Notes: a model not told the origin generated them from the letters alone. 64,000 bases of DNA from an uncultured Chthonomonadaceae bacterium (GCA_963817895.1 CAWFQB010000001.1:1088001-1152000); one strand, 5' to 3'; shown: positions 15,063 through 34,814, counted from the stretch's first letter. Translations and numbers: made by a program.

Positions 15063-15548
15063 GGTGCTGAACTCCTTAAGTCCGTGTGTGCCGGCTGCAA
15101 GGCCGGGTTGATTAGCGTGTGTGTGCTTGGGTAGGGCGTTCAGAACAGGGCTTTCAGATAAGCCTGCGCAAAACGCCGGTGTGAGACAATCGCGCAAAGG
15201 CGGAAGAGATACTGCCGCTGTGCGCCTTACGATTCGATTGCGCAAATGCAGCGCAACGAGGCCGCATTCTTTTCAGCTTCGGGGCCGAGGCTGCGCGGTC
15301 AGGCTGCCGGATGGAGGAACCTGAACGCGGCGGGGTTTCTCCCACAACACCGGGGTACGCGCTTAATGACGCGACACCGGCAGGGGAGAAGATTAGTATA
15401 AGCTTCGTTTGTCATTATACATCTAGATCGGCAGTGCGTCAATAGAAAAATAGCTGACAAAACACACTGGAAATATTTCTATCCGCCGTTTTGATGTGAA
15501 CATACCCTGAGTACTTCAGTTGAGAGTGCAAAGTTTTGGCGGGAACAG

Positions 15549-15611
15549 CAAAACGCCTGAGTCGCCATACTCTCCTGCGTTCAGGCACGGGAGTATAGCG
15601 ACTCAGGCGTT
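15549..15611 (-). terminator. Long hairpin terminator downstream of the tRNA-like copy (likely the original host tRNA-Val 3' flank)
   Basis: AACGCCTGAGTCGC...GCGACTCAGGCGTT then TTTT on the minus strand. Confidence 0.65.
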
Positions 15612-15620
15612 GTAAACGGA

Positions 15621-15715
15621 TGGGCAGTACTGGATTCGAACCAGTGACCTCTTCGGTGTGAACGAAGCGTTGCTCCGCAGCGTCTAACGACGCGCTTCGC
15701 AGGAGCCAACCGCCC
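15621..15715 (-). ncRNA. tRNA-Val(CAC)-like sequence with expanded D-arm at the integrase-side att junction
   Basis: GGGCGGT TG GCTC [CTGCGAAGCGCGTCGTTAGACGCTGCG] GAGC AAC GCTTCG TTCACAC CGAAG AGGTC ACTGG TTCGAAT CCAGT ACTGCCC A; acceptor, anticodon and T arms intact; expression unknown. Confidence 0.7.
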
Positions 15716-15799
15716 GACAGAATTTCCTTCCTCTCCTCACAAATACAGCGCTTCGTGTGTCTGTTTATCCTCCTCAATCCAACGATGAGGATGGACACA

Positions 15800-16798
15800 A
15801 TGGCAAAGACAACGCTTCGTTCTTCGACTTCGCACAGCGCTTCGTGCGACCTTAGCCTCAGCGACCTGAAACGCTACGGGGACGCCTGGTTACAGGACAG
15901 CAAGTATCGGCAACTGTCCGAACAAACCCGCTACAATCGCGGCCTGCTTATCGAGAAACTGCAATGGTGGCTGCAACAGCAGAAATGCGCCGTCTGTGGT
16001 ACGCTGGAAATCAAGCAATTCTTGGCCTATGTGGGCAATGGACACAACGAGCAAGGCGGCAGGTGGGGAAATGCCCAACTCACTCGCGCCGTGAGGCCTC
16101 GCACGGTCAAGGACTATCACGGCAACCTACGCACCTTCTTCAAGTATCTGGTGGAGGAAGGCTATCTGGACGTTTCGCCAATGGAGAACGTCAAGCCGCC
16201 TGTCTCTCGCGCTGACCAGATTGTACCCTTCACACAAGAGCAGGTCAACGCCCTGCTACAAGCGGCAAAGACCGGCAATGCTCCCCTGCGCGATGAGGCG
16301 CTGATTCTGTTCCTGATGGATGGCGGCGTCCGTGCCAGCGAGCTATGCAGCCTCACCATGCAGGATATAGACGTGGTAGGCAAGCGGGCTACGGTGCTAG
16401 GCAAGGGGAACAAACATCGAACCGTGTACTTCGGGCGCGACACTTCCCGCGCTGTGATGCGCTATCTCAAAACAGAGGAACGCAAGCCCTCCGATCCGGT
16501 TTTTAAGTCCGAACGGGGAGAGGCGCTTACCCGGTCTGGTTTGCTCCAACTGATCCACAGGCTCGGACGTGCCGCCAAGATCGAAGCAACGCGCTGCTCA
16601 CCCCACACCTTCCGCCATACCTTTGCCGTCGAGTTCCTACGGGGAGGGGGACAGGTCTTCGCGCTCCAGCAAATCCTCGGACATACTCAACTTGGCATGA
16701 CACAGAAGTACGTCGCCATTGCTCAGGCTGACGTCCAGAACCAACACCTGCAATTCTCTCCCGTCGAGCGCCTACGGAACAAGGGAGGGCGCAAATGA
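15800..16798 (+). CDS. Tyrosine recombinase/integrase (XerC/D-like, no obvious arm-binding domain)
   Basis: GVRASEL (R), GKGNK (K), HTFRH, LGH, TQKY catalytic residues; alternative ATGs at 15785 and 15791. Confidence 0.95.
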   Translation: MAKTTLRSSTSHSASCDLSLSDLKRYGDAWLQDSKYRQLSEQTRYNRGLLIEKLQWWLQQQKCAVCGTLEIKQFLAYVGNGHNEQGGRWGNAQLTRAVRPRTVKDYHGNLRTFFKYLVEEGYLDVSPMENVKPPVSRADQIVPFTQEQVNALLQAAKTGNAPLRDEALILFLMDGGVRASELCSLTMQDIDVVGKRATVLGKGNKHRTVYFGRDTSRAVMRYLKTEERKPSDPVFKSERGEALTRSGLLQLIHRLGRAAKIEATRCSPHTFRHTFAVEFLRGGGQVFALQQILGHTQLGMTQKYVAIAQADVQNQHLQFSPVERLRNKGGRK

Positions 16799-16923
16799 GC
16801 ATCCAGCGCTACAAGTCCGGGCGCTACTGGGCTGTCTACGATGAACACGGAGAGATGATCTGCCTGTGCGTATACAAGAAGGGCGCATTAGAGGTCGTAA
16901 GAAGGTTATTAGGCTGTGATTAG
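16795..16923 (+). CDS. 42-aa small protein coupled to the integrase (candidate directionality factor)
   Basis: ATGA overlap with integrase stop; RBS GGAGGG; MSIQRYKSGRYWAVYDEHGEMICLCVYKKGALEVVRRLLGCD; below the ORF-track cutoff. Confidence 0.65.
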   Translation: MSIQRYKSGRYWAVYDEHGEMICLCVYKKGALEVVRRLLGCD

Positions 16924-17397
16924 AGGAGATTTATATCAAGCTTACTGTTGGTAGACAAACTAAGGCGTGTGATATCTATACGCCTCATGACAATTGTATT
17001 GACATGAGTATGAGGAGTGTGCTAATCTTTCTTTACTCTATCTATTAGAGGATTTAGAATAAGTGCCGACGCGGTCAGTGTTTGTCCTGTGCGGAGTAGT
17101 TTCGGTTACTATCAGAGGCTGATTCCATTCTCTGAAAAGCCTTGAAGACACTAGGATGGACTTATTCTAAAGCCTCTTAGGACTTACGCGGTTGTTGCTC
17201 ACTGTTTAGCTTTTTCGAGATAGAAGCGTTTTGGCAAAGCTGTGAACATCTGTTATTTTGTGCCTCTCACAGGTGTGCAAACAGTTCCAAAGCAAGGCTG
17301 ATGAGATTGCGCCCCTATGGTGAGCAGCAATTGCGTAAGTCCTATCTATATCAGCGTATATACTACCAGCTTGATACCAGCGTAAGGAGCCGTTAAC

Positions 17398-18222
17398 TTG
17401 AGTGATCTTCCTACCATAACAACTTACGACGCATGGGTGTTAAAAGAATTAGATATAGATCTAACCTTAGATACCCAAATAAGGCAATACGACAACGATA
17501 TTGTAACAGCTAAATCAACTGTGACGAGTCACCCGTTTTTTCAAAATTTAGCTGGTTTTGTTGAAGATTGTTGTATGGATTACAAAGATCAAGTAGGGGC
17601 AGACTTGCTCATGAACAAATTTGAACTATCAATTGTTTCTAAAACATATAAATCATCTATCAACAAAAGTTACCGAATGAACATTGTCCTCAATAAAAAT
17701 CTTCCTGGCCCTCCATCTTCTGGATGGATATCGCCCGAAAACTGGTACGAGGAACTCAACGATCTATTACGAACTCGAATAACCTGTAAGTTTATTGATG
17801 GTCCTCAATATTTATCAAATCGGCTAACCGAATATGCAGCAACGCATGGATTGGACTTAAATTTTAGGTCTCAGCAGAAAGACGGTGGCTACTATGCTTA
17901 CCACTGCTATGTCCATATTGATGTACCACTGCTAAAACATTCTGCGACTGGCCGTGTTGTATATGACGTAAAAATGTCTGTTGAAATCCAGTTAACAACG
18001 CAACTTCAAGAAGTTCTTTATGATCTTACCCATCCGATATACGAAGCGTTGAGAGTCAAACCCGAGCAGGATCCATCTGCATGGAAATGGGATTACAAGT
18101 CAGATAGATTCAAATCTGGTTATATGGGACATACTCTTCATATGCTAGAAGCAATTATTCTGGAAATCAGAGATAACAACATTACTTCGGCTAAGGTTCA
18201 GGAGAACGAAGATGTCAAATAA
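17398..18222 (+). CDS. RelA/SpoT-like (small alarmone synthetase-type) nucleotidyltransferase
   Basis: LNDLLRTRI, GGYYAYH, VEIQLTTQLQ...LTHPIYE resemble SYNTH motifs; RBS AAGGAG, TTG start. Confidence 0.7.
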   Translation: MSDLPTITTYDAWVLKELDIDLTLDTQIRQYDNDIVTAKSTVTSHPFFQNLAGFVEDCCMDYKDQVGADLLMNKFELSIVSKTYKSSINKSYRMNIVLNKNLPGPPSSGWISPENWYEELNDLLRTRITCKFIDGPQYLSNRLTEYAATHGLDLNFRSQQKDGGYYAYHCYVHIDVPLLKHSATGRVVYDVKMSVEIQLTTQLQEVLYDLTHPIYEALRVKPEQDPSAWKWDYKSDRFKSGYMGHTLHMLEAIILEIRDNNITSAKVQENEDVK

Positions 18223-19870
18223 ACATAGTATGATCCCTTCTCCAGAGGTTGTACATTTAACAACAGTATTCCGGCGAATACAGAATGGTGAAATTCGTAT
18301 ACCAGCGTTTCAACGAGGATTTGTCTGGGAAGAAGACCAGATTATCAAACTTTTGGAAAGCATTTTTAAAGGCTATCCAATAGGAAGTCTTCTGTTTTGG
18401 AAGGTGGATAAAGCAGGCGATACTGTGTTGAATGTTTTAGATGAGAGTTCTGACTCTGACAACACCCTTGTGCCTTTCCCTCATATTACACTCACATTTC
18501 CAGTAAATTATGTGTTAGATGGTATGCAGCGTCTTTCGTCGTTGTATGGGGTATTCCTTGCTGCTACAACTAACGATAGTTTTAACGTCGTTTTTGATCT
18601 GGAAAAGCGGGAGTTTATTTATGACGATCAGAGAAAGCTTGTAGCACCTCGTTTCTTGAACCTATCAGATTTATTCGCACCACGCCGCTTACTTGATGCG
18701 CAACGTTCTATGACTGAACAAGACAATGGCGAAATTTTGATTGACAGTTCCATCGAACTTCTTTCTTCGTTCCAAGAATATATGCTACCAATTGTAACGA
18801 TCTCGACAGATAATGTAACTGAGGTAGTTGAGATATTTGAAAGAGTGAATAGTACAGGCACAAAGTTGAGCAGAGTGGACTTCATGCGGGCTTTAACGTG
18901 GTCTGACGGCTTTGACCTAAATGTAGCCTTACGAAGTATTAAGGAGGATATCCTTCTTCAAGGATTTGTGTTCCCATATGAAACATTGACCAAAGTAGTC
19001 GCAATTCTGCTCGGCAAGAGTCCAACACCAACTTCAATGCTTGAACTTCGAAGTTTTTCATCCGATGATCTTCACGAAGGTGTTATGAAAGCGAAGATGT
19101 ACCTATCCGATGTAACTGGATTTTTGAGAAACGAGTTTAGTATTTACTCTTCAGATTTCGTACCGTATGAGGGGCAACTTCTCGTTTTGGTTAAATTGTT
19201 TGAACAACTTAGTTACTCATGGATAGATGACGGAACTGCCAAGCAAGTGATTTCTACTGCAAGGGAATGGTTTTGGAACACTAGTTTCAGTGAAACATTG
19301 CGGGGTAAGCCCGACGGATACGTCATTCGAGAAATACAGAGCGCAGTAAATCTTACGAAGGGTGATCTTCGTGCTTTACCTTCAAAGCTGCTGCTTGACG
19401 ATGACACACTGCGTGAACGGCGCTTTACCAAAGGCAAAGCATTGTCGTCAGCTATAGCTGCGCTATTCGCTAGTAACAAAGCACGAAGCTTAGTAACTGG
19501 TGAAGTAATACCACCAGAAAAATATATGACTGATTTCAAAGTGGAAAATTTTGAGGCGATATGTTCCCAAAAGGCAGTCCAAGCATCAACTATTCGCAAA
19601 GTTTCATCTCCAAAAGTATTGGCGAACCTTTGTGTGGTGTTGGATACGGATAGAAAGTCATATAATCCGTTTAATCCACATGCGTTACTCCTATCAGTTT
19701 ATGAACGGTTTGAGCCTGAAACAGCCGACGAAATTCTTCGATCCTTGTTTGTGGACGATCAAACGTTCTATATCCTTAAAGGTGGTGACGAAATAGATTT
19801 TCTGAGACACCGCTCTGCTAATATGCTTATGGCTGCTGGAAGAGTCAATCGAGACACACGCACGTCCTAA
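18212..19870 (+). CDS. DUF262 (GmrSD N-terminal-like) domain protein
   Basis: IPAFQRGFVW, YPIGSLLFW, VLDGMQRL, IFERVNSTGTKLS. Confidence 0.88.
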   Translation: MSNKHSMIPSPEVVHLTTVFRRIQNGEIRIPAFQRGFVWEEDQIIKLLESIFKGYPIGSLLFWKVDKAGDTVLNVLDESSDSDNTLVPFPHITLTFPVNYVLDGMQRLSSLYGVFLAATTNDSFNVVFDLEKREFIYDDQRKLVAPRFLNLSDLFAPRRLLDAQRSMTEQDNGEILIDSSIELLSSFQEYMLPIVTISTDNVTEVVEIFERVNSTGTKLSRVDFMRALTWSDGFDLNVALRSIKEDILLQGFVFPYETLTKVVAILLGKSPTPTSMLELRSFSSDDLHEGVMKAKMYLSDVTGFLRNEFSIYSSDFVPYEGQLLVLVKLFEQLSYSWIDDGTAKQVISTAREWFWNTSFSETLRGKPDGYVIREIQSAVNLTKGDLRALPSKLLLDDDTLRERRFTKGKALSSAIAALFASNKARSLVTGEVIPPEKYMTDFKVENFEAICSQKAVQASTIRKVSSPKVLANLCVVLDTDRKSYNPFNPHALLLSVYERFEPETADEILRSLFVDDQTFYILKGGDEIDFLRHRSANMLMAAGRVNRDTRTS

Positions 19871-19993
19871 TGGACAAACCAGATAAAGATTGTACTATGG
19901 CGGGGTTCCGAGTGTTGAAAACACCCGTCTGAGTGGCGTTCCGCCAAGCGTCCTACGGACGCGGGATTGTACAATGTTCAAGTGGTTTGTCCA
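19871..19993. mobile_element. MITE-like element, GNA-hairpin family copy A
   Basis: TIR TGGACAAACCA...TGGTTTGTCCA flanked by TAA on both sides; internal hairpins GGCG-TTC-CGCC and GCGTCC-TAC-GGACGC. Confidence 0.7.
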
Positions 19994-20023
19994 TAAGTTT
20001 ACTATTCTGCGTTTGAATACTGA

Positions 20024-20278
20024 TCAGTTATCCATTTCTTTCAGCAAGTTTTCATACCTTTGTACGAACTCCACTAACCCAACCCCTAGTGCCTGACAGA
20101 CCTCCCGCAATTCAGGGAGGTCTAGTATTCTTTCTCCCGACTCGAACCTGCTGACGAACGACTGCGGTTTGCCGAGACGTTTGGCAAGGTCAACCTGCGT
20201 CAGACCAGCATCACGCCGAACCTGACGAAGTAAAGATTGTAGTAATTCCTGCTGAGGCGTGTAGAGAGACTTTTGCAC
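20024..20278 (-). CDS. XRE-family HTH transcriptional regulator
   Basis: RRDAGLTQVDLAKRLGKPQSFVSRFESGER. Confidence 0.9.
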   Translation of the reverse strand: MQKSLYTPQQELLQSLLRQVRRDAGLTQVDLAKRLGKPQSFVSRFESGERILDLPELREVCQALGVGLVEFVQRYENLLKEMDN

Positions 20279-20374
20279 CCCTCATTGTAGAAACTACGGT
20301 CGCAATATGCAGGAATTAGATATTTTCAGGAGAATACTAGGCATGAGCAGATTGCAACACACAGGAGGGGAATA

Positions 20375-21502
20375 ATGCCGACACTTGGAGAGGTCAAAGA
20401 GCAGATCAAGCGTGCTGATGGAAAAGATACTTTCCTCACTTGGAGAGAAGTACAGGACTTGCCGAATGTCCTAGCTGATGGCGAGACTATCCAGAGGGTA
20501 GCACAAGCAGGGTATAATGGCGTGACAGGTATGCTGTTGGCGACAGATCAGCGCCTTATCTTCATCAAAACGAACCTTCTGAACAAAGCAATGGTCCACT
20601 CTTACCCCTTCTCCAACATTGCTTCTCTCAACAGCAAGCCGGGTTTGCTATTCACTACTTTCAACATCGGCTTGTCTGACGGCGATTCTGTCATAATCCA
20701 GACGATTGCAAATGTCGTGGCACAGCGCATCTGTGACTATGTTCAGCCTCGTATCGGCGTCACAAGTCCGCCACAGACAGTCCAGAGCAGCAATATGACT
20801 TCCGAACTGGAACGATTAGCGAATTTACGGCAGCAGGGACTTTTGGATGAGCAGGAGTTTGCAGATGCCAAACAGCAGATCATAGCGAAACAGCCTAGGT
20901 TTCCACCCGCCGACATACGCTTGCCTAGTCTCCAGACGCCACATCAGCCCGTCTCTCCACAAAACCATACAACACAACCTGCTACGCCTTCACCTACGCC
21001 GCAAAGGACTCTAAAAAAGAGTACGATAAACAATATCTTTACTGCATTAGTGCTTTCTCCCATCTTCTGTTTCGCAGCGTATGTCATGATTTCTGACATG
21101 CGCGGTTCCTCGCAGACCAATATGACAATGAGTAGATCGTCTACGACCGCTACAACAGAAACGCCTGCTCCGGCTCCTGCTGAACCCGTAAAGCCATCGA
21201 AACCTGATCCAAAAGACAGTCCGGCCTTCAAGAAGAAGTTTGCGGCGTTGCTCGATAACCTGCGAGGTATCAGCGGTGTGACCGATGCAAAACAATTTGA
21301 CTGGGATCATTCTATGGGAACAATCAACGTATACGTCCCGGTCGGTACGAGCAAAGATCAGGCACGGGAAATAGCATCCGAGGCGTATCGCGAGTTTGTA
21401 CTGGTGCGGACGCCGTTCTATGGGGAAGATGCTGATAATTGTCAGATCGGAATACGGGATACAGATGAGCGTCTAATTCTTACGCGTAATAACCTGTGGT
21501 AG
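20375..21502 (+). CDS. Membrane protein with bacterial PH-like and SHOCT-like domains
   Basis: GMLLATDQRLIF (PH-like); ELERLANLRQQGLLDEQEFADAKQQII (SHOCT); one TM helix; RBS AGGAGG. Confidence 0.75.
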   Translation: MPTLGEVKEQIKRADGKDTFLTWREVQDLPNVLADGETIQRVAQAGYNGVTGMLLATDQRLIFIKTNLLNKAMVHSYPFSNIASLNSKPGLLFTTFNIGLSDGDSVIIQTIANVVAQRICDYVQPRIGVTSPPQTVQSSNMTSELERLANLRQQGLLDEQEFADAKQQIIAKQPRFPPADIRLPSLQTPHQPVSPQNHTTQPATPSPTPQRTLKKSTINNIFTALVLSPIFCFAAYVMISDMRGSSQTNMTMSRSSTTATTETPAPAPAEPVKPSKPDPKDSPAFKKKFAALLDNLRGISGVTDAKQFDWDHSMGTINVYVPVGTSKDQAREIASEAYREFVLVRTPFYGEDADNCQIGIRDTDERLILTRNNLW

Positions 21503-21522
21503 AGGTAGACTTCTACAATTCA

Positions 21523-21561
21523 AAGGGAGGTTCTAATCCAGCAGGTTAGAACCTCCTTTTT
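21523..21561. terminator. Probable bidirectional intrinsic terminator
   Basis: GGAGGTTCTAA...TTAGAACCTCC followed by TTTTT, between convergent genes. Confidence 0.75.
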
Positions 21562-21575
21562 CCCGTACACCGCCA

Positions 21576-21923
21576 TTACATAAGGCTCTGGTATCTGCCT
21601 GTTCCGGCGACGGCTTGCAGAACGTCGTTCGCCTGTGCCTGTGAGCGCAAGGCAAGTGTCTGCTTACGGAGTGCCTGCGCTTTCTGCCAGAGTTCTTTCG
21701 TGTTACGGTCTACCCGTAGAATCGCCTCATGTGGGTCTGTAAGTTCGCGTACACGTTGGTACGTAGCTTCGGCTATACGATGCGTTTCCTGTCGAACCTT
21801 CGGAAGTTCCCTCTGTGTCGCGCTATTCAGGCGTTGTGTCTGCGCTTGGAGCGTCGGTAGCAGCGCGTCCAGTTCGGCTTCGATTTCTTCGTAGTTCATC
21901 GTTCGTTCTCCTGTGTCTAGCAA
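21576..21923 (-). CDS. Hypothetical coiled-coil protein
   Basis: ORF with heptad-like helix; likely true start at the MNYEE ATG after AGGAG. Confidence 0.55.
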   Translation of the reverse strand: MLDTGERTMNYEEIEAELDALLPTLQAQTQRLNSATQRELPKVRQETHRIAEATYQRVRELTDPHEAILRVDRNTKELWQKAQALRKQTLALRSQAQANDVLQAVAGTGRYQSLM

Positions 21924-22219
21924 TGCGGGTAAATAGGGCAGCAGTGTGTTTAAATTGGTTCTGCCCTGAGTCTGTCACAGAACACGTACAAACGCACATC
22001 TGATGTCATATCAATCACCCCTGTCATATCGCTCTATTTCATGATATACCCCTCCCTCATGATATACCCTTCCACTTTCGCATGATGCCTGAGTGCTTCT
22101 ATTAGACGGCTAATTTTATAAAAGTCGCGGATGATGGAAACTGCCATACAGGAGGGAGACCCTTCCCCCTTATAGCCCCCTCTCTTGGAAATGAGGAGGG
22201 GGAGGTTACGTTTTCGTTC

Positions 22220-22876
22220 TTACTTGCTTACGGATACGCGGAGTACCTTCTGGTCGAGGAGTATCTGCATACCTCTGGCAAACCCATACAGATACGCCTC
22301 TGAAGACGGTTCCGCTTTGCAGTTGTACAGGTCGCCGTTCGTTCCGTACTGTTGATCTGCTGCGAGACGCAGATGATCGCGCATCTTCTGGACAGCCCTA
22401 CAAGCGCGACTCAGAGTAGCGACTGAGCGCTGACTACACGGCACCTTCTGCAATAGCCTGTGTAGTGCCAGAAGACCTTTCAGCAGGCAGAGTGTCTCGG
22501 CGCTTAGGCGCTTGTGGAGGTCACGCGGAATGCCTATCTTGCGTCCAGTAGGAGGTTGCACAAGGATGTCCTCAACGGCATAGGCCCATAAGACGAACTC
22601 TGTTGTCCCGATAGCCTGATCTTGGTAGGGCATTTCCGTGTCCCAGTGTGCCGCTTCGAGGTCACAGTACAGGTTGCTCAGTTGCAGGCTTGTGAGCCGA
22701 CTCTGGCGGATAGGAACCGATACGCCCGACAGGACATTCGTGAGCGATTCTGCAAGGCTGCCCATGCTCTGAGACAGCGCGAGAATCTCTTGTCGCAGGT
22801 GTTTCTTCGGTTTGGTTGTCGTCAGAGATATTTTCTTGAGAGTTGGTGTCATGCTCTGCTTGCTCCTATATCGCAA
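22220..22876 (-). CDS. Hypothetical protein
   Basis: 218-aa ORF co-oriented with the replication module. Confidence 0.55.
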   Translation of the reverse strand: MRYRSKQSMTPTLKKISLTTTKPKKHLRQEILALSQSMGSLAESLTNVLSGVSVPIRQSRLTSLQLSNLYCDLEAAHWDTEMPYQDQAIGTTEFVLWAYAVEDILVQPPTGRKIGIPRDLHKRLSAETLCLLKGLLALHRLLQKVPCSQRSVATLSRACRAVQKMRDHLRLAADQQYGTNGDLYNCKAEPSSEAYLYGFARGMQILLDQKVLRVSVSK

Positions 22877-22901
22877 TTATTGCGATACATTCCATATGCG
22901 C

Positions 22902-23258
22902 TCACGAGGAAAGGCAGGCCTCATAAGCCTCTGGCGCGTTTGTCTGTCTCGGCATGTCCAAGAGCCTTACCAGACAAATCGCCGCTTGCAGATCAGGTTG
23001 GCGGGTGTATACGCGGACAGTCTCGCCTGTGGTGTCGTCCTGTTGGTCGAGGTACTCTCCTCGCGCCAGATAGATAATCCCATCGAGAATATCAGGCAGA
23101 TGATCGGTGACACGCTTGCGAACACGGAGAGCGACATTCGCGAACCGCTCACGTTTTGGAACTGGGCCAGAATTGAGTGCTGCCCCTGCCCGAATGTGAA
23201 TAGGCCTCGTTTCTCGTGATTCTAGAGTTTGCATAATCGTACCTTTCCTGTGTGTCAT
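22902..23258 (-). CDS. Hypothetical protein
   Basis: 118-aa ORF; RBS AGGAAAGG before the MQTLE ATG. Confidence 0.5.
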   Translation of the reverse strand: MTHRKGTIMQTLESRETRPIHIRAGAALNSGPVPKRERFANVALRVRKRVTDHLPDILDGIIYLARGEYLDQQDDTTGETVRVYTRQPDLQAAICLVRLLDMPRQTNAPEAYEACLSS

Positions 23259-23430
23259 GGGGTATGTTAGGGTATGTTAGGGCATGTTTCGGCCTCCCCT
23301 TACCCCGGTTTTATAAAATTATAGTTTGTGTTTTCACCTTATGACGGAAGTTGAAACATACCCCCTCTAACGGAGTGTCTCAGTTAATCGCAGGTTTCAA
23401 AGAGTATCGTGCGCCATTTTTCGTTGGATG

Positions 23431-23506
23431 GCGTCTTTAGCGTTTTAAGCGTCCAAAGGTTAGAAGATATAAAACGCTTAAAACGCTAAAGACGCTAGAG
23501 CGCAAT
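23431..23506. repeat. Iteron-like 9-bp repeats (AAAACGCTT/AAGACGCTA) in inverted arrangement; candidate replication origin
   Basis: GCGTCTTTAGCGTTTTAAGCGTC ... AAAACGCTTAAAACGCTAAAGACGCTAGAGCGCAA. Confidence 0.65.
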
Positions 23507-23513
23507 CGGTTTA

Positions 23514-25859
23514 TCATTTTTCCTCTTCCTCTGTATCATCCTCATGGATGATCGTCCAGAACTCGCGAGGCCGTCCGTCCGTCTCCTCCTTTGTGCATGT
23601 TGCTAATCCATTTCGCTGGAGAAGCTCTAATGCTGTTGTCAGACGCGCCGTTGTGATATGCTTTTGGAATACGTCGTCGCGTATGTCCTTTCGACTCATG
23701 CCCTCTGTTGAACGCAGAGCAGATAGGACTTTCTCTGAATCCTTGTTGCCAAGAGAAGTGCCAAAAATGAAGGCAGCCGAGGCGTCGCAGTATTGCCAAA
23801 CGGCGAGAGCCGCCTTGAGATGTGCGGTGCATATCGTTTCCGACTTGTCCAACAGTGCGTAGAGCATAGATAGGCGAAGAACCTGAGCTTCTGCGCGGGA
23901 GGTAACATGACCGAGAACTCCCTCCCGATCTTCTGTGAGTGTCGGGTAAATTTCGCACCATAAAGCTCGTGCGCCCTCATCACGCTTAATCTCACCTGCG
24001 GATGAGGCAAAAGCAATTACTTCATGTAGTACCTGCCGCAGCGAAACAATATCCGACTCTGGAAGGTTTCCACCTTCTGGAAGTAGCTTTGACCGTTCAG
24101 AGCAAATCCAGAGGAAACGGTTGGCGAATCCGTTGAATAGATTGCTGCCTTTATTCAAGCATTGAAGCAACTCCTCTCTCGTGATATGGCCTACGATAGA
24201 GATATGAGCGTCTGTTGCGCAGTCGGGATTTGTCTTGGTAAGGTTTTTCAGGTTGCCACTGTCCCAAGCTTCTCTCAACACGGAAGATAGTTTGTTTGTG
24301 TCGCGTTCCATAACTTGCAACACGCCTGCGAATTCCGTTTCCTTATCGAGTAGGCGCTTATCGCTCACGCCGGGAACCATCACGGCTTCGTATTCCTTCT
24401 TTCGCTTATCGTAAATATGTTCTGTTCGATCATCCCTCACATGGTAAACAAGACCTTCGCCAGATGCCAGACCTCCCTTGATACAGGTCTTTACCCATCC
24501 GGTGCTGCCATCGTCTTCACTGAAAAGAGCGAGTATGAGGTCTAGACCTGTGCCTTTTCTTCCTCGTGAGGACTGCCCGACTGTCGCGCAAAATAGGTTA
24601 GTGTGATGTTTGGTAGCGCCTACCTTGAAGAAGGCCTTTCGGCCTATTCGGTTGCCGAAAGCCACTAGAAACTGCACAAGGAGAGCCGTCGAGTCGGCTT
24701 CTGTATGCGGCGCAAGTGTCTTGAGAACTTTTCCTACCAGACCATAATGCGCTTCTTCTGGTAGTGCCTCAGGCCATATCGAAATCATTTTTCTATTGCG
24801 CTCTAGCGTTTTAAGCGTCTTTAGCGTTTTATCTCCTTCGCCTATTTGCTCCTTTGTTTGACTTTGGACGCTTAAAACGCGGTGAGGAGAGTAGAAATCT
24901 GCTTCTCTTTTCCCCTCGTAAGCTTTGTATATCGTGCCACGCAAATACGTCGTATCTCCTCGTGCTGAATCGTACTTTTCACGGAATAGAGCGGATGCGT
25001 ACATGAGGCGCTCAACCTGCTCGTGTCCATCCTTTCCACAGTAGAAGGCGAGCTTACTGCATAGAGCAAGATCGGCGCGGCTGTCGTCGTCGTCATAGTC
25101 GCTAATGTCGCCGTCGTCGAATAGCCTCTTGAACTTGTCCCCGTTCTTCTCGTTCCTTGCCAATTTAAGCACAGCCATATCGGGGATTAGATCGCGCTCA
25201 CGAGCAGGGAAACTTTCTGAGCTACCGGCAATCAAATCCTCGACGACGCTCTCTCCTGAGAGTTCCTTGTACAGCGTCTGGAATTCATCGGTTCGCTCTT
25301 CAACGGTTGCCGGAGTGCCAGGCCAACGAACGCCCGTTACAGTAAAGTATCGCGCCTGTGTGTACATCTCGACTATGATGCCACCACAACTCCCCTTGCG
25401 CCCTTTGTGGTTTCCTTTAACTTTCACGAAGATGTGCAGGCCTGTACCAGACGGGCTGACTTCGGTGTAAGAGTCAAGCCGATTGACGATTTCCTGTGCT
25501 TTAGGACATATCTTCTGTCCTGTTGCGTCAATGACTTTATCGAGATCGATGCCCACGATATCATTCTCTTCGCTGAAGACGTAACCTATCCCCTCGTAGG
25601 TATGCCGGGACAAAGCTTGCTGCGCCTTCTCGAATGTCGCCCAATCTGACGGTTCCATAGTGGAAACTGCCCCTCCGTGTAGGGCTGAGTAGGGAACCTT
25701 CGTAGTTTTTTCTCCTCGTGTTTCTCGTTGCCACCCTACCCAAGCCTTGTGGTTTTTTAGTTCGTCAGGGACACATTCGTATCCATCTGTTTTAGGCATC
25801 AAAGTTCGCACTTGTCTTTTTACGGTCGAAATTTTAACCATTATCTGCGCCTCTTTCAT
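23514..25859 (-). CDS. Primase-polymerase (AEP/NrS-1-like) fused to a DUF3987/YfjI-like helicase and C-terminal winged helix
   Basis: GIGYVF, VGIDLD, YTEVSPSGTGLHIF; SRADLALC; GQSSRGRKGT; LREAWD; GFANRFLW. Confidence 0.85.
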   Translation of the reverse strand: MKEAQIMVKISTVKRQVRTLMPKTDGYECVPDELKNHKAWVGWQRETRGEKTTKVPYSALHGGAVSTMEPSDWATFEKAQQALSRHTYEGIGYVFSEENDIVGIDLDKVIDATGQKICPKAQEIVNRLDSYTEVSPSGTGLHIFVKVKGNHKGRKGSCGGIIVEMYTQARYFTVTGVRWPGTPATVEERTDEFQTLYKELSGESVVEDLIAGSSESFPARERDLIPDMAVLKLARNEKNGDKFKRLFDDGDISDYDDDDSRADLALCSKLAFYCGKDGHEQVERLMYASALFREKYDSARGDTTYLRGTIYKAYEGKREADFYSPHRVLSVQSQTKEQIGEGDKTLKTLKTLERNRKMISIWPEALPEEAHYGLVGKVLKTLAPHTEADSTALLVQFLVAFGNRIGRKAFFKVGATKHHTNLFCATVGQSSRGRKGTGLDLILALFSEDDGSTGWVKTCIKGGLASGEGLVYHVRDDRTEHIYDKRKKEYEAVMVPGVSDKRLLDKETEFAGVLQVMERDTNKLSSVLREAWDSGNLKNLTKTNPDCATDAHISIVGHITREELLQCLNKGSNLFNGFANRFLWICSERSKLLPEGGNLPESDIVSLRQVLHEVIAFASSAGEIKRDEGARALWCEIYPTLTEDREGVLGHVTSRAEAQVLRLSMLYALLDKSETICTAHLKAALAVWQYCDASAAFIFGTSLGNKDSEKVLSALRSTEGMSRKDIRDDVFQKHITTARLTTALELLQRNGLATCTKEETDGRPREFWTIIHEDDTEEEEK
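24797..24881. repeat. Second iteron-like cluster inside the primase-helicase linker
   Basis: TTGCGCTCTAGCGTTTTAAGCGTCTTTAGCGTTTTAT ... TTTGGACGCTTAAAACGC; inverted copy of 23431-23506. Confidence 0.65.
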
Positions 25860-26046
25860 AAAAGTGAGCGGGACGGGCGCATTCGTCCCGCTCTGTTCTG
25901 GGGATCAACCAGAACACTGTTGTTGCTTTTTCAGAGGAAACCTCTACTGCGCCAGCAACTTGCCCAACGTGTATTTATATCTACTATTAGTATCCCTCCT
26001 TTTCATGGTTTACTCTGATAATCTAACAATAATATATTATTAGATT

Positions 26047-26388
26047 TTAGTTCAGATCAGATTTAGCACCTCTTGGGATGACTATGCTCGGATTGAGTTG
26101 TTGGTACTTGGCAATGTCCATCATGACTTCAGCCAAGACAAATTTCCCCAAAAACTCCATTTGATCCGTCACCGTCAGGAATTGTTCTTGCAGGCGAGTT
26201 CCGTAGGTGGTAATTACGTCGTCGCCGTAGGAACAACTCCGGTTTTCTAACAAGCGATGCAACTCACGCATTGCTTCTGCGTTTTCTCGAAAAATGCTAA
26301 TGGCGCTTCGCATGTGCTTACTGATGTTCTCCAGCATTTCCACCTTGTTGCTATTCACCAGCACTTCCATCTTGTTCTCTTGAGACAT
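26047..26388 (-). CDS. Hypothetical protein
   Basis: 113-aa ORF, RBS GGAG. Confidence 0.5.
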   Translation of the reverse strand: MSQENKMEVLVNSNKVEMLENISKHMRSAISIFRENAEAMRELHRLLENRSCSYGDDVITTYGTRLQEQFLTVTDQMEFLGKFVLAEVMMDIAKYQQLNPSIVIPRGAKSDLN

Positions 26389-26480
26389 GGTTTTCTCCGA
26401 TCTCTTCTGAGTCGAATCGAGCCAGTTATGGCTCAGAAATCATAACAACCTTTTTATATTAAAATTGGGGCCATAAACGC

Positions 26481-26522
26481 AAAAAGGCCGAGACGATTCA
26501 CAATTAATGAATCGTCCCGACC
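26481..26522 (-). terminator. Intrinsic terminator inside the island end, downstream of tRNA-Val
   Basis: Minus strand GGTCGGGACGATTCA-loop-TGAATCGTCTCGGCC-TTTTT. Confidence 0.7.
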
Positions 26523-26772
26523 ATGATTTTCAGTTGTTCTGTAAAGGCTAAATTTTAATATAAAAAGGTTGCAAGATTATTGTACAGTAGCCATAGGAGT
26601 TTGTCAAGCAAAGTTTTGAAAATCGGAAGAAACAGATGGAACAGCGGTTGAGAGGACGCCCAAGACAGCGCTTCGTATGGCATAATAAAGGACGTAGGCA
26701 GCGCTTCGTTCGCGCAGTTCTACGCCCTTTAGGAAGATAGACAGACACAGATTTGTGAGGAAGAATCGGAGA

Positions 26773-26844
26773 TGGGCAGTACAAGATTCGAACTTGTGAC
26801 CTCTTCGGTGTGAACGAAGCGCTCTACCACTGAGCCAACCGCCC
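26773..26844 (-). tRNA. tRNA-Val(CAC)
   Basis: GGGCGGTTGGCTCAGTGGTAGAGCGCTTCGTTCACACCGAAGAGGTCACAAGTTCGAATCTTGTACTGCCCA: canonical cloverleaf, anticodon CAC, CCA not encoded. Confidence 0.95.
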
Positions 26845-27015
26845 CAGACTAACACTGTCTCATATTCACGAAACTTTTGGCTGAACGGGCGCGGACGCCT
26901 GAACAGCAGAAAAGATTGAATATAGGATACTCTTTTTGAGCGCGATTGTCAAGAGTTTTTGAGGACGAAAATCAAGGATGATACCCCCTGTCCTTTTGTT
27001 CGAGGAGCCTTTCCT

Positions 27016-29772
27016 ATGAAGTTCGCCGCATGCCTGTGCTTGCTGTTCACCCTGGCCGCGCCCATTGTTGCCGCGCGGAACTCCGTTTCCGGGGAGGTTT
27101 CTCTGATGAAGTCGGCTTCCATAACATCGGCTACAGGGAAAGTGTCTGCCCTGAAACCTGTTTCTCTACGATGCGAATATGGAGAGGACGGTGTGGATAC
27201 GCCTGCCCCGCGCCTGAACTGGCTGCTTGCTGCCGACAAACGGGCGCAGAAACAAACCGCTTACCAGATTCTGGTGGCTTCCAGTGACACACCCCTGGCA
27301 CAGGGGCAGGGCGATTTGTGGGACACGGGCAAAATTGGATCAAGTTCGAGCGGGCATATTCTGTACGCGGGCAAACCGTTGCAATCCGGCCAGTATTGCG
27401 CGTGGCGGGTGCGGGTATGGGACCAGAATGATGCCATGTCGGAGTACAGCCCTGCCGCGCATTGGACAATGGGACTACTGCATCCCGGCGACTGGCGCGG
27501 CAAGTGGATCGGGCGTACAACGGATACCGCCTATCAGCCCGCGCCCTATCTGCGCCATGCGTTCGCGCTAAAAGGAAAGATTGCGCGGGCAACCGCTTAT
27601 GTGTGCGGTTTGGGATATTACGAACTGCATTTGAACGGGCAGAAAGTGGGCGACCACGTTCTTGATCCGGGCTATACGCGCTACGACCGCCGCGCTCTGT
27701 ACGTCACTTACGACGTTACGAAAGCATTGAAAGCCGGTCAGAACGCGGTTGGTATCGTATTAGGAACGGGTTGGGAGAACGTTCATACCCGCGCCGTGTG
27801 GTACTTCGACCGCGCCCCGTGGAGAGCCGCGCCCAAAGCCCTGCTGGAAATGCGCGTCGAGTACGCGGACGGCACAACGGAAAACATCGTCACGAACGAA
27901 AACTGGAAAACTTCAACCGGCCCGATTGTGTACGACAGCATTTATGGCGGGCAGACGTATGACGCGCGATTGGAACTGGCCGGATGGGATAAACCCGATT
28001 ACGACGACAGCCGTTGGCAAAACGCGCTTGCGGTGGCTCCTCCCGGCGGCAAATTGACATCACAATTTTGCCCGCCGATTCGCGTCAAGACGGTTATCAA
28101 GCCCGTCAGTGTGACCGAGCCGAAACCGGGCGTGTGGCTGTTCGACATGGGGCAGAACTTTGCCGGTTGGGCGGAACTGCGCGCGTCCGCGCCGAAGGGA
28201 ACCAAAATTACCCTGCGCTATGGCGAACGTCTGGGTTCGGATGGCACTCTGGATCAATCCCACCTTGCGCAGCATCTTGTGAAAACCGAACCGCCGCAGC
28301 GATTCCAGACGGACGAGTACATCTGCAAGGGCGGGGGAACGGAAACGTGGCATGCGCAGTTCTGCTATCACGGCTTTCAATATGTGGAATTGACCGGCTT
28401 TCCGGGCAGGCCCACTCTGAATACTCTGCGTGGCCTGTTTCTTCATTCGGATGTCGCGCCGACCGCCGAGTTCGCGTGTTCCAATCCCCTGCTCAACCGC
28501 ATCTGGCAGGCAACTCGCATGTCGTACCTGAGCAACCTGCAAAGCATCCCGACCGATTGCCCGCACCGCGAAAAGAACGGCTGGACGGGGGACGCGCACC
28601 TTGCCGCCGAGTTCGGCCTGCTGGCTTTCGACAGCGTAGGCGTGTACGCCAAATGGGTCAACGATCTGGACGACGAGCAAAAAACGACGGGAGAACTGCC
28701 CGGAATCGTGCCGAGCAGCGGGTGGGGTTACGAGTGGGGCAATGGGCCGGCATGGGACAGCGCGTTCGTGCTTATTCCGCGCTACTGCTACACATACTCG
28801 GGCGATGGGCGCATTTTGGAACAGCACTACGCGGGCATGAAGCGGTACGTGGATTACCTGACCACGCGCGCAAAGGAGGGCATTGTATCCATCGGGCTTG
28901 GCGATTGGGTTCCGTTTGAAACCGAAACCCCGGTCGAAGTCACGTCCACCGCGTACTATTACCGCGACGCGCTGCTCGTCGGACTGCTGGCCGCGCAGTT
29001 GGGAAACAGTGAGGACGCGCAAAAGTACAATGCTCTCGCCGCGCAAATCAAAACCGCGTTCAACCGGCGCTTTTATCACCCCGAAACGGCAACCTACGCC
29101 AACGGCAGCCAGACCGCGTTAAGCTGCGCTTTGTATCAGGGATTGGTGGAACCGGAGAACCAAGCCGCTGTAGTGAACTCGCTCGTGGCCGCAGTGGAAA
29201 AGCGCAACGGGCATATTGACACGGGCATTTTGGGCGCGAAGTACATTTTCCACGCCCTGACGGAGGGCGGGCGGGCGGATGTGGCGTACCGGATCGCGAA
29301 CCAGAAGGACAAGCCGGGTTGGGGCTGGTGGCTGGAACAGGGCGGCACAACGCTGTGGGAAAGCTGGGGCGGCACGGATTCGCGCAACCACATCATGTTC
29401 GGCGACATCAGCGCGTGGTTCGTGGAAACCCTCGTGGGCATCACGCCGGACGCGCCCGGTTTCACCGCTATTCGTATCCAGCCCCACATCGTCGGCGACC
29501 TGACCGGCGCAAGAGCGCAACTGCAAACCGCGTCCGGCCAGGTCACAAGCGACTGGCAACGGGAAAACGGCAGCCTGCGTCTGTCCGTGGAAATCCCCGC
29601 CAACACGACCGCGACCGTTTATGTACCCGCTTCCGACACTGCCCTATGTCAGGAGGGCGGCAAACCCGCAGCGCAATCCGAAGGCGTCCACTTCCTGCGC
29701 CGCGAACCCGGCTACATCGTCTACGCCGTCGCGGGCGGCAAATACGAGTTCACCAATCGTCTTGAACCATAA
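27016..29772 (+). CDS. Alpha-L-rhamnosidase (GH78), secreted
   Basis: Signal peptide; DMGQNFAG, PTDCPHREKNGWTGD, TTLWESW, SRNHIMFG. Confidence 0.92.
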   Translation: MKFAACLCLLFTLAAPIVAARNSVSGEVSLMKSASITSATGKVSALKPVSLRCEYGEDGVDTPAPRLNWLLAADKRAQKQTAYQILVASSDTPLAQGQGDLWDTGKIGSSSSGHILYAGKPLQSGQYCAWRVRVWDQNDAMSEYSPAAHWTMGLLHPGDWRGKWIGRTTDTAYQPAPYLRHAFALKGKIARATAYVCGLGYYELHLNGQKVGDHVLDPGYTRYDRRALYVTYDVTKALKAGQNAVGIVLGTGWENVHTRAVWYFDRAPWRAAPKALLEMRVEYADGTTENIVTNENWKTSTGPIVYDSIYGGQTYDARLELAGWDKPDYDDSRWQNALAVAPPGGKLTSQFCPPIRVKTVIKPVSVTEPKPGVWLFDMGQNFAGWAELRASAPKGTKITLRYGERLGSDGTLDQSHLAQHLVKTEPPQRFQTDEYICKGGGTETWHAQFCYHGFQYVELTGFPGRPTLNTLRGLFLHSDVAPTAEFACSNPLLNRIWQATRMSYLSNLQSIPTDCPHREKNGWTGDAHLAAEFGLLAFDSVGVYAKWVNDLDDEQKTTGELPGIVPSSGWGYEWGNGPAWDSAFVLIPRYCYTYSGDGRILEQHYAGMKRYVDYLTTRAKEGIVSIGLGDWVPFETETPVEVTSTAYYYRDALLVGLLAAQLGNSEDAQKYNALAAQIKTAFNRRFYHPETATYANGSQTALSCALYQGLVEPENQAAVVNSLVAAVEKRNGHIDTGILGAKYIFHALTEGGRADVAYRIANQKDKPGWGWWLEQGGTTLWESWGGTDSRNHIMFGDISAWFVETLVGITPDAPGFTAIRIQPHIVGDLTGARAQLQTASGQVTSDWQRENGSLRLSVEIPANTTATVYVPASDTALCQEGGKPAAQSEGVHFLRREPGYIVYAVAGGKYEFTNRLEP

Positions 29773-32970: not shown

Positions 32971-33876
32971 ATGAAGACCAAACATTTCCTTTCAGGGATC
33001 GGGTGTAGCCTGATGCTGTTCGCGCAGGCAGGCAGGGCGCAGGATGCCAGACAAACGCTGCCCCCGCCGAGTACAACATTCGCGTATCGGACGCCGCCAA
33101 CGGGCAAAATGCCCGACAACATTCCGCCTGCTGTAGCGCGTTTTCTCAAACAGCGCGACGCGGCCAAAACCCTGTCGTTTCAAGCGCAAATCTGGTATCA
33201 CAAGCCGGACGATCTGGACAAAATTCATGCCGGACAACTGCTGGACGTTCAAATCCACAGGCCGAACCTGTTCGCTGTGCATGTGTCGCCTGGTGAAAAA
33301 TACGAAGCCCAAACGCCCACCGGCATGACGATTACCTTTCTGAACCTGCTGGAATCCGCCAGTATCTCAGACGGCAAATCGCTGCTGACGCTGCTCTCTC
33401 CCCGCGTCGGCCAGGTATTTTACAGCACTGATCCCTCCTCTACAACCTACAGCGAGTCAAAATCCGAAGCGTTGCAGCGCATCATTCCCGATGCCGCGCT
33501 GGCGTCGAACGCGCTGGCGGATTATGCGCCCGCGCCGGATGCGCAGCTTGGACTGACGCCCGTTGCCATATACGCATATATCCGCGACGTCACCCCTGCC
33601 GGTCGGCCTAAAGCGCACGAGGAAGACTTTGTGTTGTACTTTTCCAAAGACACGGGCGAATTGATGCGCTGGTCCTACTTCGATTTAGGGCCGGACGACA
33701 AGCGCAGGGAATTTGAGCGCGTGGAGTATGGGGACTGGAAGTTCAACCCGCGCCTGTCCGCTTCCACGTTCAGCGTGAAACCGCCAACCGGGGCCATTCC
33801 CGCGTCTTCCATTCCCATCCCCGGAAGAAAGGCCACTCCTACAACGGCAATCACCGCAACAAAATCTAAAATGTGA
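32971..33876 (+). CDS. Secreted LolA-like/DUF2092-type protein
   Basis: Signal peptide; RPNLF, SDGK, YGDWKFNP..F...PP pattern. Confidence 0.6.
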   Translation: MKTKHFLSGIGCSLMLFAQAGRAQDARQTLPPPSTTFAYRTPPTGKMPDNIPPAVARFLKQRDAAKTLSFQAQIWYHKPDDLDKIHAGQLLDVQIHRPNLFAVHVSPGEKYEAQTPTGMTITFLNLLESASISDGKSLLTLLSPRVGQVFYSTDPSSTTYSESKSEALQRIIPDAALASNALADYAPAPDAQLGLTPVAIYAYIRDVTPAGRPKAHEEDFVLYFSKDTGELMRWSYFDLGPDDKRREFERVEYGDWKFNPRLSASTFSVKPPTGAIPASSIPIPGRKATPTTAITATKSKM

Positions 33877-33989
33877 ACGTCTTATTATCACATTGATAAC
33901 ACGAAGAATCGGAAACCTGTCTTAATCTATTTTCTGTCATTACGTTTCCCGTCGAATTCCTCATTATCAGTGTAGATAAGGGAAACACA

Positions 33990-34814
33990 ATGGCGATTCG
34001 CGTGGTTGTTGCGGGCGCGACGGGCTGGACGGGGAGCGCGGTCACGCGCCACATCCTCCTTTCCCCGGAGTTTGAATTGACCGGGGCGATTACCCGCCAG
34101 CCGTACCATCGCGATGTTGGCGAAGCGTTGGGCTTGCCGCCGGTCGGTTTTCCCCTCGTTGCCACGCTTGCCGAAGCGCTGCAAACCCCGACGGATGTGC
34201 TGATTGATTACACTACGCCGGATACCGTGAAGGCGCGGGTGCTGGAAGCGTTGGGGCAGGGTGTGCGGGTCGTGGTCGGCACGTCCGGGCTGACAGCCGG
34301 GGATTACGCGGAAATTGAAGCGGTGGCAATCGCGCGTAATCTGGGCGTGATTGCGGCGGGCAATTTCTCCCTTACCGCCGCGCTTGCCAAGCATTGCGCC
34401 CTGCTTGCCGCCCAACATCTGTCTTCCCATGCGGCGTTATGGGAAGTCATTGATTATGCATATGCCGGCAAGCCCGACGCGCCGAGTGGCACGGCGCGGG
34501 AACTGGCCGAAGCGCTGCAAGCAATCGCCCCAAACACCCCCGAACATTCGGTAGCCCAAACGCATGGCAATCCCGAAGCGCGGGGCGCGGACATCGGCGG
34601 AACGCAGGTACACTCCGTGCGCCTGCCGAGTTACACCCTCGCGTTTGAAACCATTTTCGGCCTGCCCGACGAGCGCCTGACCATTCGCCACGACGCGGGC
34701 GCGGGCGCGGAACCCTACGTCGGCGGAACCCTGCTTGCCGCCCGCGAAGTAATGCAGATCACCGGCCTGATACGCGGACTGGACACCCTGCTATTCAGGA
34801 AGGATGAAGGTTGA
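33990..34814 (+). CDS. dapB: 4-hydroxy-tetrahydrodipicolinate reductase
   Basis: GATGWTG, DVLIDYT, VVGTSG, GNFSL, KPDAPSGTA, HSVRLP. Confidence 0.9.
   Translation: MAIRVVVAGATGWTGSAVTRHILLSPEFELTGAITRQPYHRDVGEALGLPPVGFPLVATLAEALQTPTDVLIDYTTPDTVKARVLEALGQGVRVVVGTSGLTAGDYAEIEAVAIARNLGVIAAGNFSLTAALAKHCALLAAQHLSSHAALWEVIDYAYAGKPDAPSGTARELAEALQAIAPNTPEHSVAQTHGNPEARGADIGGTQVHSVRLPSYTLAFETIFGLPDERLTIRHDAGAGAEPYVGGTLLAAREVMQITGLIRGLDTLLFRKDEG

Follow-up and report, generated by a model that had tools for sequence, protein, structure and literature searches.

An island inserted in a tRNA-Val gene

The window, meaning the whole 64,000-nucleotide stretch of DNA analysed here, comes from an Armatimonadota genome and contains an 11.1 kb island of lower GC content inserted in a tRNA-Val(CAC) gene on the minus strand. 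The island is flanked by a 51-nt direct repeat (15619-15669 and 26771-26821) and has the organization of a tRNA-targeting island, with the restored tRNA at one end, the displaced 3' fragment at the other and a tyrosine recombinase gene at one end. Its main features, numbered from the first letter of the window, are as follows.

15619-15669, minus strand: left repeat copy, the displaced 3' half of the host tRNA-Val(CAC), 92% to the right copy
15644-15669: identical core of the left repeat copy
15670-15715, minus strand: element-borne look-alike of a tRNA 5' half, scoring 32.7 bits with the tRNA model against 70.8 for the true gene
15800-16798, plus strand: tyrosine integrase of 332 aa (PF00589, E 3e-38)
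17398-19870, plus strand: low-GC cargo pair, a RelA/SpoT-like gene and a GmrSD_N (DUF262) gene
23514-25859, minus strand: primase-polymerase/helicase-like replication gene (NrS-1 HBD, DUF3987)
26771-26821, minus strand: right repeat copy, inside the intact restored tRNA-Val(CAC) gene 26773-26844

Read from the sequence, the four differences between the repeat copies are compensatory in the T stem, and the crossover likely falls within the anticodon loop (15656-15662). In the tRNA look-alike a 27-nt hairpin (15676-15702) stands in place of the 7-nt D loop. A search of 15300-27100 with Rfam at the gathering score returned nothing beyond two tRNA hits, none of the loci fetched had the terminal overlap of a circular contig, and the two same-genus genomes searched held no usable empty site.

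The cargo pair is likely to serve in defence: the GmrSD_N (DUF262) gene matches PDC-M55C (E 9e-57), while the RelA/SpoT-like match is weak (E 0.0097). An HTH protein is also encoded by the island. A 39-aa open reading frame that follows the integrase was considered as an excisionase and could not be so called, as neither the fetched loci nor the NCBIfam families held a match to it.

A structure model of the integrase (pLDDT 89) comprises a core-binding and a catalytic domain, with neither an arm-binding domain nor any extra domain, and its first helix begins at residue 20. The RHR-Y residues are invariant in 40 aligned integrase proteins and the best fold matches are XerA and Tn1549 Int. Scores with the XerC and XerD models (about 160 against cut-offs of about 330) and with the integron integrase model TIGR02249 (55.4 bits against 265) fall below threshold. 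The protein is also unlike the lambda type, which has an N-terminal arm-binding domain and arm sites that differ from the core, for here the extra sites near the integrase gene resemble core half-sites.

The cross-end inverted repeat and the integrase leader

Between the tRNA segments and the integrase, and again at the inner border of the far end, lie the elements that concern us here.

15734-15744, plus strand: near arm A, pairing at 11 of 11 positions with 26751-26761 in the circle
15745-15755, plus strand: motif 1 (11 nt), a candidate core-type half-site of the integrase, bulged and skipped in the cross-end helix
15756-15774, plus strand: near arm B, the anti-SD strand, whose partner is the SD region when integrated and 26731-26749 in the circle
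15762-15797, plus strand: predicted SD-hiding hairpin of the integrase leader, with the SD at 15787-15791
26665-26675, plus strand: far motif copy, directly upstream of the putative outward -10 box
26678-26686, plus strand: putative extended -10 promoter facing the attachment site, its score reached by 3% of shuffles
26693-26724, plus strand: 5' hairpin of the predicted circle transcript, containing motif copy 26698-26708
26731-26761, plus strand: far arm, made up of B' (26731-26749, anti-anti-SD), a single G (26750) and A' (26751-26761)

The original prediction described an inverted repeat with two mismatches between the ends, interrupted by an 11-nt insertion equal to the repeated att motif, and both statements hold to the nucleotide. 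Arm A pairs at every position and arm B at 17 of 19, the exceptions being one G-T and one C-A on the plus strand, and motif 1 is skipped opposite the single G at 26750. The alignment score was reached by 2 of 5000 random 130-nt genome windows and by none of 200 shuffles. A structure existing only after excision had also been proposed, and the predicted fold of the reconstructed circle agrees with it: pairing probabilities in the arms are 0.68-1.0 at 11 sampled positions, the motif is mostly unpaired and the resulting helix is about 30 bp in length. When the junction was folded on both strands with DNA as well as RNA energy parameters the arms paired; the half-sites were not rebuilt as a pair of duplexes.

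What the original prediction had missed is that the 3' part of the left arm doubles as the 5' strand of a hairpin over the integrase SD. In the predicted integrated state 15762-15775 pairs with 15784-15797 and covers the SD, so that arm B has two exclusive partners, the anti-SD/anti-anti-SD arrangement being found here computationally and conserved across differing sequences. Taking the SD opening cost as the predicted energy needed to unpair positions -15 to -4, we obtain 13.1-14.7 kcal/mol for all integrated 5' ends tried (13.9-14.7 for three of them) and 13.9 kcal/mol for a circle RNA that starts past the far arm. Circle RNAs that include the far arm have costs of 5.7-6.1 kcal/mol (5.9-6.1 for three 5' ends), with the SD still just about 0.3 unpaired in the circle fold of the window.

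The extended -10 at 26678-26686 is absent from the list given by a stricter promoter scan. Across the family, the outward promoter signal is weak, scoring above the shuffle mean in 18 of 27 pairings (p 0.06) without surpassing the opposite strand (p 0.32), 9 of 36 pairings having been left out of this test, 3 as distant and 6 as judged non-cognate by eye.

The motif pattern has 9 matches in the window where 0.26 are expected, 6 of them at the ends of the element, and 68 matches genome-wide. Copies at 15809-15819 and 15834-15844 fall in the first integrase codons, and a further motif-like copy (15689-15699) lies in the hairpin that replaces the D loop; matches at 33465-34518 were discarded as ordinary coding DNA.

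Leaders, far ends and target sites in related islands

The named relatives are from Armatimonadota, with matches at E 1e-40 or better in 96 of the 401 genomes of the phylum sample, and no relatives were found on viral contigs. In 29 of 29 top relatives the integrase closely follows a tRNA (target tRNAs Val, Ala, Gly, Pro, Thr, Asp and Leu) encoded on its own strand. The sequences show the usual arrangement to be tRNA, then hairpin A, motif 1, SD hairpin, start codon and motif 2. The window is the exception, as its tRNA segment is inverted relative to all 29; its predicted switch keeps its polarity to the integrase gene despite this inversion. The tRNA mimic is not a required part of the structure: most relatives have the 3' half of the tRNA alone between the arms, on the strand opposite to that of the window.

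The leaders are structured in 55 of 75 distinct cases (z below -2 against shuffles), and 32 of the 75 are more stable on the sense strand, which is no excess. Since only 6 resemble terminators, read-through from the tRNA is likely in most of them. The primary sequence of arm A is weakly conserved (14 of 75 against 3.75 when shuffled), a weak consensus that the switch model leaves unaccounted for.

Pairing in homologs had been put forward as a check, and it was found in most: related islands in other tRNAs have other arm sequences in the same layout, and the SD opening cost falls when a leader is joined to its own far end. In a first set of 18 elements with both ends, window included, joining lowered the cost by over 0.5 kcal/mol in 15 and raised it in none. 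The 15 constitute the close family (15 of 15, window included) and the 3 unchanged elements a distant group of 36-42% identity. Mean costs for this set are 11.5 kcal/mol integrated, 6.8 with the own far end and 10.9 with foreign far ends. A later set comprised 18 further pairings for which far ends were chosen only by the tRNA fragment; sequences were viewed before computing and every row was kept. Here 14 showed a drop of over 2 kcal/mol and none a rise, against 1 of 18 with foreign far ends; L063, L045, L254b and L259 stayed short of such a drop. False positives do occur, as L040, L041 and L269 show, which dropped with far ends of non-cognate appearance; 11 of 15 remain without them. Twelve of the 18 later pairings span contigs, and of those on a single contig 4 of 6 dropped. 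As the relatives are kin and not independent, the p values given here overstate significance.

Other measures separate own from foreign far ends to a lesser degree: by alignment score itself the own far end ranked first in 11 of 33 cases, and by duplex energy over long stretches, a measure too noisy for the purpose, it was best in 9 of 18. At tandem-type natural junctions the SD cost stays at 9.7-15.9 kcal/mol in 6 of 6 (L052, which has no start codon, was left out of this test). One such tandem junction, in a same-genus genome, has a far end that opens the L028 leader from 13.8 to 6.1 kcal/mol, and the two fold as arm, bulge and arm, as the window does. Many relatives have short, wobble-rich arms, and the far ends of several loci, including L048 and L052, were not found within 60 kb.

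The mismatches in the arm-B window (-52 to -14), with G-T and A-C scored alike, favour G-T over A-C on the integrase-sense strand by 69 to 35 in 33 own pairings (p 6e-4), where foreign control pairings give 2147 to 2137. The 13 best-ranked pairings give 26 to 15 (p 0.06) and the window itself 1 to 1; an earlier test over whole, noisy alignments gave 49 to 54, with no strand bias. The G-T bias fits RNA and single-stranded DNA alike and cannot separate them. The case for RNA derives instead from the identity of arm B as the anti-SD strand, from a polarity tied to the integrase gene and independent of the tRNA, and from a fold that offers no two-site DNA substrate.

The repeated motif follows the target of each element. 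In 62 of 75 leaders it matches the half-site of its own target better than other stems, although the 5' half-site is copied at 12 of 12 positions in 1 leader of 75 and at 11 of 12 in 15, and many copies blend the two inverted halves of the anticodon arm. In a set of 73 proteins (L083 and L052 left out for out-of-register tRNA calls) the integrase positions with the strongest covariation with target bases include 42, 46, 49, 101, 105, 108, 109 and 249-250, which sit on helices predicted at 41-60, 100-119 and 245-258; helices of this kind touch the DNA major groove in Xer, Cre and lambda Int. At half-site position 7, C accompanies Arg42 (19 of 22 against 10 of 51); at position 10, G accompanies Arg or Lys101 (29 of 32 against 6 of 41). 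Among 36 disjoint pairs of proteins, concordant changes outnumber discordant ones by 8:1, 7:0, 5:1 and 4:0, in four tests that were chosen after the covariation scan and with a tree of the quick type only. From these sequence patterns and the modelled helices, the motif is best read as the integrase's own protein-bound half-site, and the far arm may skip it simply because DNA binding constrains its sequence.

A proposed switch, its rivals and known systems

Taken with the predicted folds, the layout suggests that the locus probably carries an excision-dependent translational ON-switch for the integrase, built from a split RNA helix. Its computed support consists of the complementarity of the ends, its recurrence and specificity in relatives, the predicted opening of the SD and the residue-base covariation. 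In the integrated state the leader hairpin would hide the SD and the integrase would be poorly translated, which would matter most in the usual layout, where the gene comes directly after a host tRNA of like orientation. The island would excise by recombination in the anticodon loop, which would bring the far end upstream of the integrase, where a far-end promoter would transcribe the far arm, the attachment site and the leader as a single RNA. Within this RNA the far arm would pair with near arms A and B, skip the motif and remove the anti-SD strand; from the freed SD the integrase would be made, favouring re-integration. The repeated motifs would act as DNA half-sites of the integrase, probably for autorepression or intasome assembly. 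Circle formation, the promoter, translational control in cells and autorepression are steps that we infer. Since arm sequences are element-specific, a neighbouring tandem island would not be expected to trip the switch.

With slightly less assurance, we think it likely that a widespread island family of the Armatimonadota both senses its own excision by such an element-specific two-part RNA key, each far end unlocking translation of its own integrase alone, which would insulate tandem islands, and retargets among many tRNAs by a simple residue-base code in the core-binding domain (42, 101, 108), with the half-site copies following. For integrases that have neither an arm-binding domain nor an obvious excisionase, a helix assembled across the attachment site would explain directly, through translation and in addition to known junction promoters, how they stay quiet when integrated and re-integrate once excised. 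The system would amount to a compact sensor from DNA state to translation with many natural orthogonal pairs, and the covariation to a table of natural specificities of a small tyrosine integrase.

Among other readings of the inverted repeat, the one that treats it as double-stranded DNA mirror sites, whether for the integrase (half-site plus A-tract flank) or for a host factor, with SD opening a by-product, is unlikely. It draws on the far arms of L033b, L036, L037 and L161, which are inverted copies of the extended motif, on the weak consensus kept by arm A and on the negative whole-alignment test of strand bias. Against it, arm B has no sequence in common across elements but is complementary to the far end of its own element and coincides in part with the anti-SD strand, and G-T is preferred to A-C in the arm-B window. 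Moreover, the motif is skipped and not mirrored in the window, L038, L254a, L043, L042, L031 and L028 (judged by eye, some of them folded). Part of the original prediction offered the RNA switch upstream of the integrase RBS, which is the part retained here, together with the alternative of a folded single-stranded attP after the manner of attC and CTX, which is not. That a single-stranded circle has a top strand which forms a folded recombination substrate appears more doubtful still. The arms pair with DNA parameters too and the G-T bias is equally compatible, but DNA and RNA folds of both strands leave the half-sites in loops or a 5-bp stem instead of forming two duplex sites around the crossover. 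Neither an integron-type integrase (55 bits against 265, with XerA and Tn1549 Int as top folds) nor host XerCD at a dif-like site is involved, the target being a tRNA; no relaxase or rolling-circle Rep is found among the island's annotated genes; and the targeting of the anti-SD strand by arm B would be left without explanation.

The length of the helix, about 30 bp, would suffice for an RNase III or other processing signal acting, in the circle, on the stability of the integrase mRNA and not on initiation, and lambda sib offers a precedent for RNA control linked to att (excerpt of PMC2951348). The short, wobble-rich arms of many relatives speak against this improbable option, as does the fact that the constant feature is the overlap with the anti-SD strand. 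Least probable by a little is a junction RNA that acts as a recombination cofactor or guide like a bridge RNA, its looped motif pairing with the target half-site. The motif is looped out in the predicted circle RNA and its letters track the anticodon stem of the target (62 of 75 leaders); against this, the single perfect copy among 75 leaders, the many blended copies and the covariation of target bases with residues on predicted helices differ from what characterizes the RNA-guided recombinases of the IS110 type, the bulge is missing in several relatives and the integrase has no extra domain. A guide-like role of the bulged motif is unlikely given that it behaves as a half-site read by protein.

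The proposed switch can be compared with known systems. In the literature searched, which holds few subscription journals, neither the switch nor the island family is described, and the excerpts consulted on the compared systems (PMC5812530, PMC2951348, PMC6379469, PMC2727003) mention no SD-freeing helix whose two halves lie on either side of att. The split helix is modelled as working like circle-junction control but acting at translation. In ICEclc, which sits in a tRNA gene, joining of the ends in the circle raises integrase expression by promoter fusion (Pcirc), which is thought to help re-integration (excerpt of PMC5812530). The present island resembles it in its tRNA gene site and in the predicted gain of integrase expression on joining of the ends, and differs in that the joined part, besides a putative promoter, would be half of an RNA helix that frees the SD, giving translational and element-specific control. 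In lambda, sib is a self-contained hairpin 3' of int that acts on decay and lowers Int when the phage is unintegrated. Its control of int (excerpts of PMC2951348 and PMC6379469) likewise links RNA structure on the integrase mRNA to the att state, but the helix described here has its halves on the two sides of att, sits at the 5' side of int and should, by prediction, increase translation. KplE1 IntS and P4 Int repress their own genes from binding sites that overlap the gene start beside the tRNA, and they use arm-type sites and a directionality factor (excerpt of PMC2951348). The island shares such an overlap of integrase sites with the start of its own gene, whereas its integrase has no arm-binding domain and its extra sites are copies of core half-sites.

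The CTX attP is a folded single-stranded recombination substrate. Folding of attC depends on the pairing of its R and L boxes and on a special segment in the integrase, and attI1 has extra direct-repeat recombinase sites (excerpt of PMC2727003). Extra direct-repeat sites and a fold with a bulge are shared with these systems; the island departs from them in that a pair of double-stranded sites is not reconstituted, the integrase is not of the integron type and the target bases are apparently read by protein side chains. In the IS200 tnpA leader an sRNA, Hfq and mRNA structure keep the recombinase silent (excerpt of PMC4513863). The island would share this silencing of a recombinase by mRNA structure and would differ by the involvement of end-joining. 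The IS110 bridge RNA and the circle-junction promoters of IS elements are cases of an RNA or promoter formed at a circle junction, a likeness to the island that stops, for the bridge RNA, at guide pairing, of which the island gives no sign.

The exceptional tRNA segment of the window has a counterpart in L036, L037 and L161, where the whole tRNA lies between the arms; flipping of such a segment would yield the layout of the window and could explain the presence of the 5'-half look-alike.

Integrase residues and the target tRNA

The integrase reads as carrying a natural specificity code for the anticodon arm of its target tRNA, a reading that follows from covariation across 73 relatives between individual anticodon-arm bases and integrase residues 42, 46, 49, 101, 105, 108, 109, 249 and 250.

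Integrase gene and adjoining reading frame
15800-16798 (+): integrase gene, containing the covarying residues
16795-16914 (+): ORF of 39 aa, overlapping the stop codon of the integrase gene

A search for relatives of the 39-aa ORF among the fetched loci of related elements returned none. At three of these loci (L251, L070 and L046) a comparison by eye shows that a stretch of about 25 nt, made up of the far motif and its flanks, almost matches the opening codons of the integrase gene in the same element, and here the predicted integrase binding site would partly spell the integrase N-terminus.

Leaders of related and distant elements

The leaders of L053, L060 and L252 present the tRNA followed by a terminator-like hairpin. 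Because the far arm of L053 pairs with the 5′ strand of this hairpin, arm A′ of the far end may act as an antiterminator. At the border of leader and coding sequence in L060, directly past the start codon, there is a perfect reverse-complement copy of nucleotides 1-29 of the neighbouring tRNA-Pro.

A distant group at 35-38% identity (L111, L139, L209, L211, L216, L219, L226 and L227), whose named records are Chloroflexota, has its integrase and intact tRNA in divergent arrangement and an anticodon-stem motif at the gene start. Three further distant elements, L201, L202 and L204, duplicate the whole tRNA and display strong cross-end complementarity, with motifs that track the target; the predicted SD switch, in which the far arm of the excised circle would open an SD hidden on integration, was sought in these three and is absent.

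Repeats near the replication genes

Repeats and signals
23431-23519: iterated direct and inverted repeats, end of primase gene
24782-24880: iterated direct and inverted repeats, within primase gene
26446-26571 and 26579-26607: perfect 21-nt inverted repeat flanking a terminator-like hairpin, with an adjoining near-consensus promoter

The primase-gene repeats, which include an inverted pair of 54 nt, are perhaps a replication origin, and the near-consensus promoter points inward, toward the replication genes. Elsewhere in the same genome, an array of 16 tRNA genes (contig C4, 227906-230044) adjoins another tyrosine recombinase gene.
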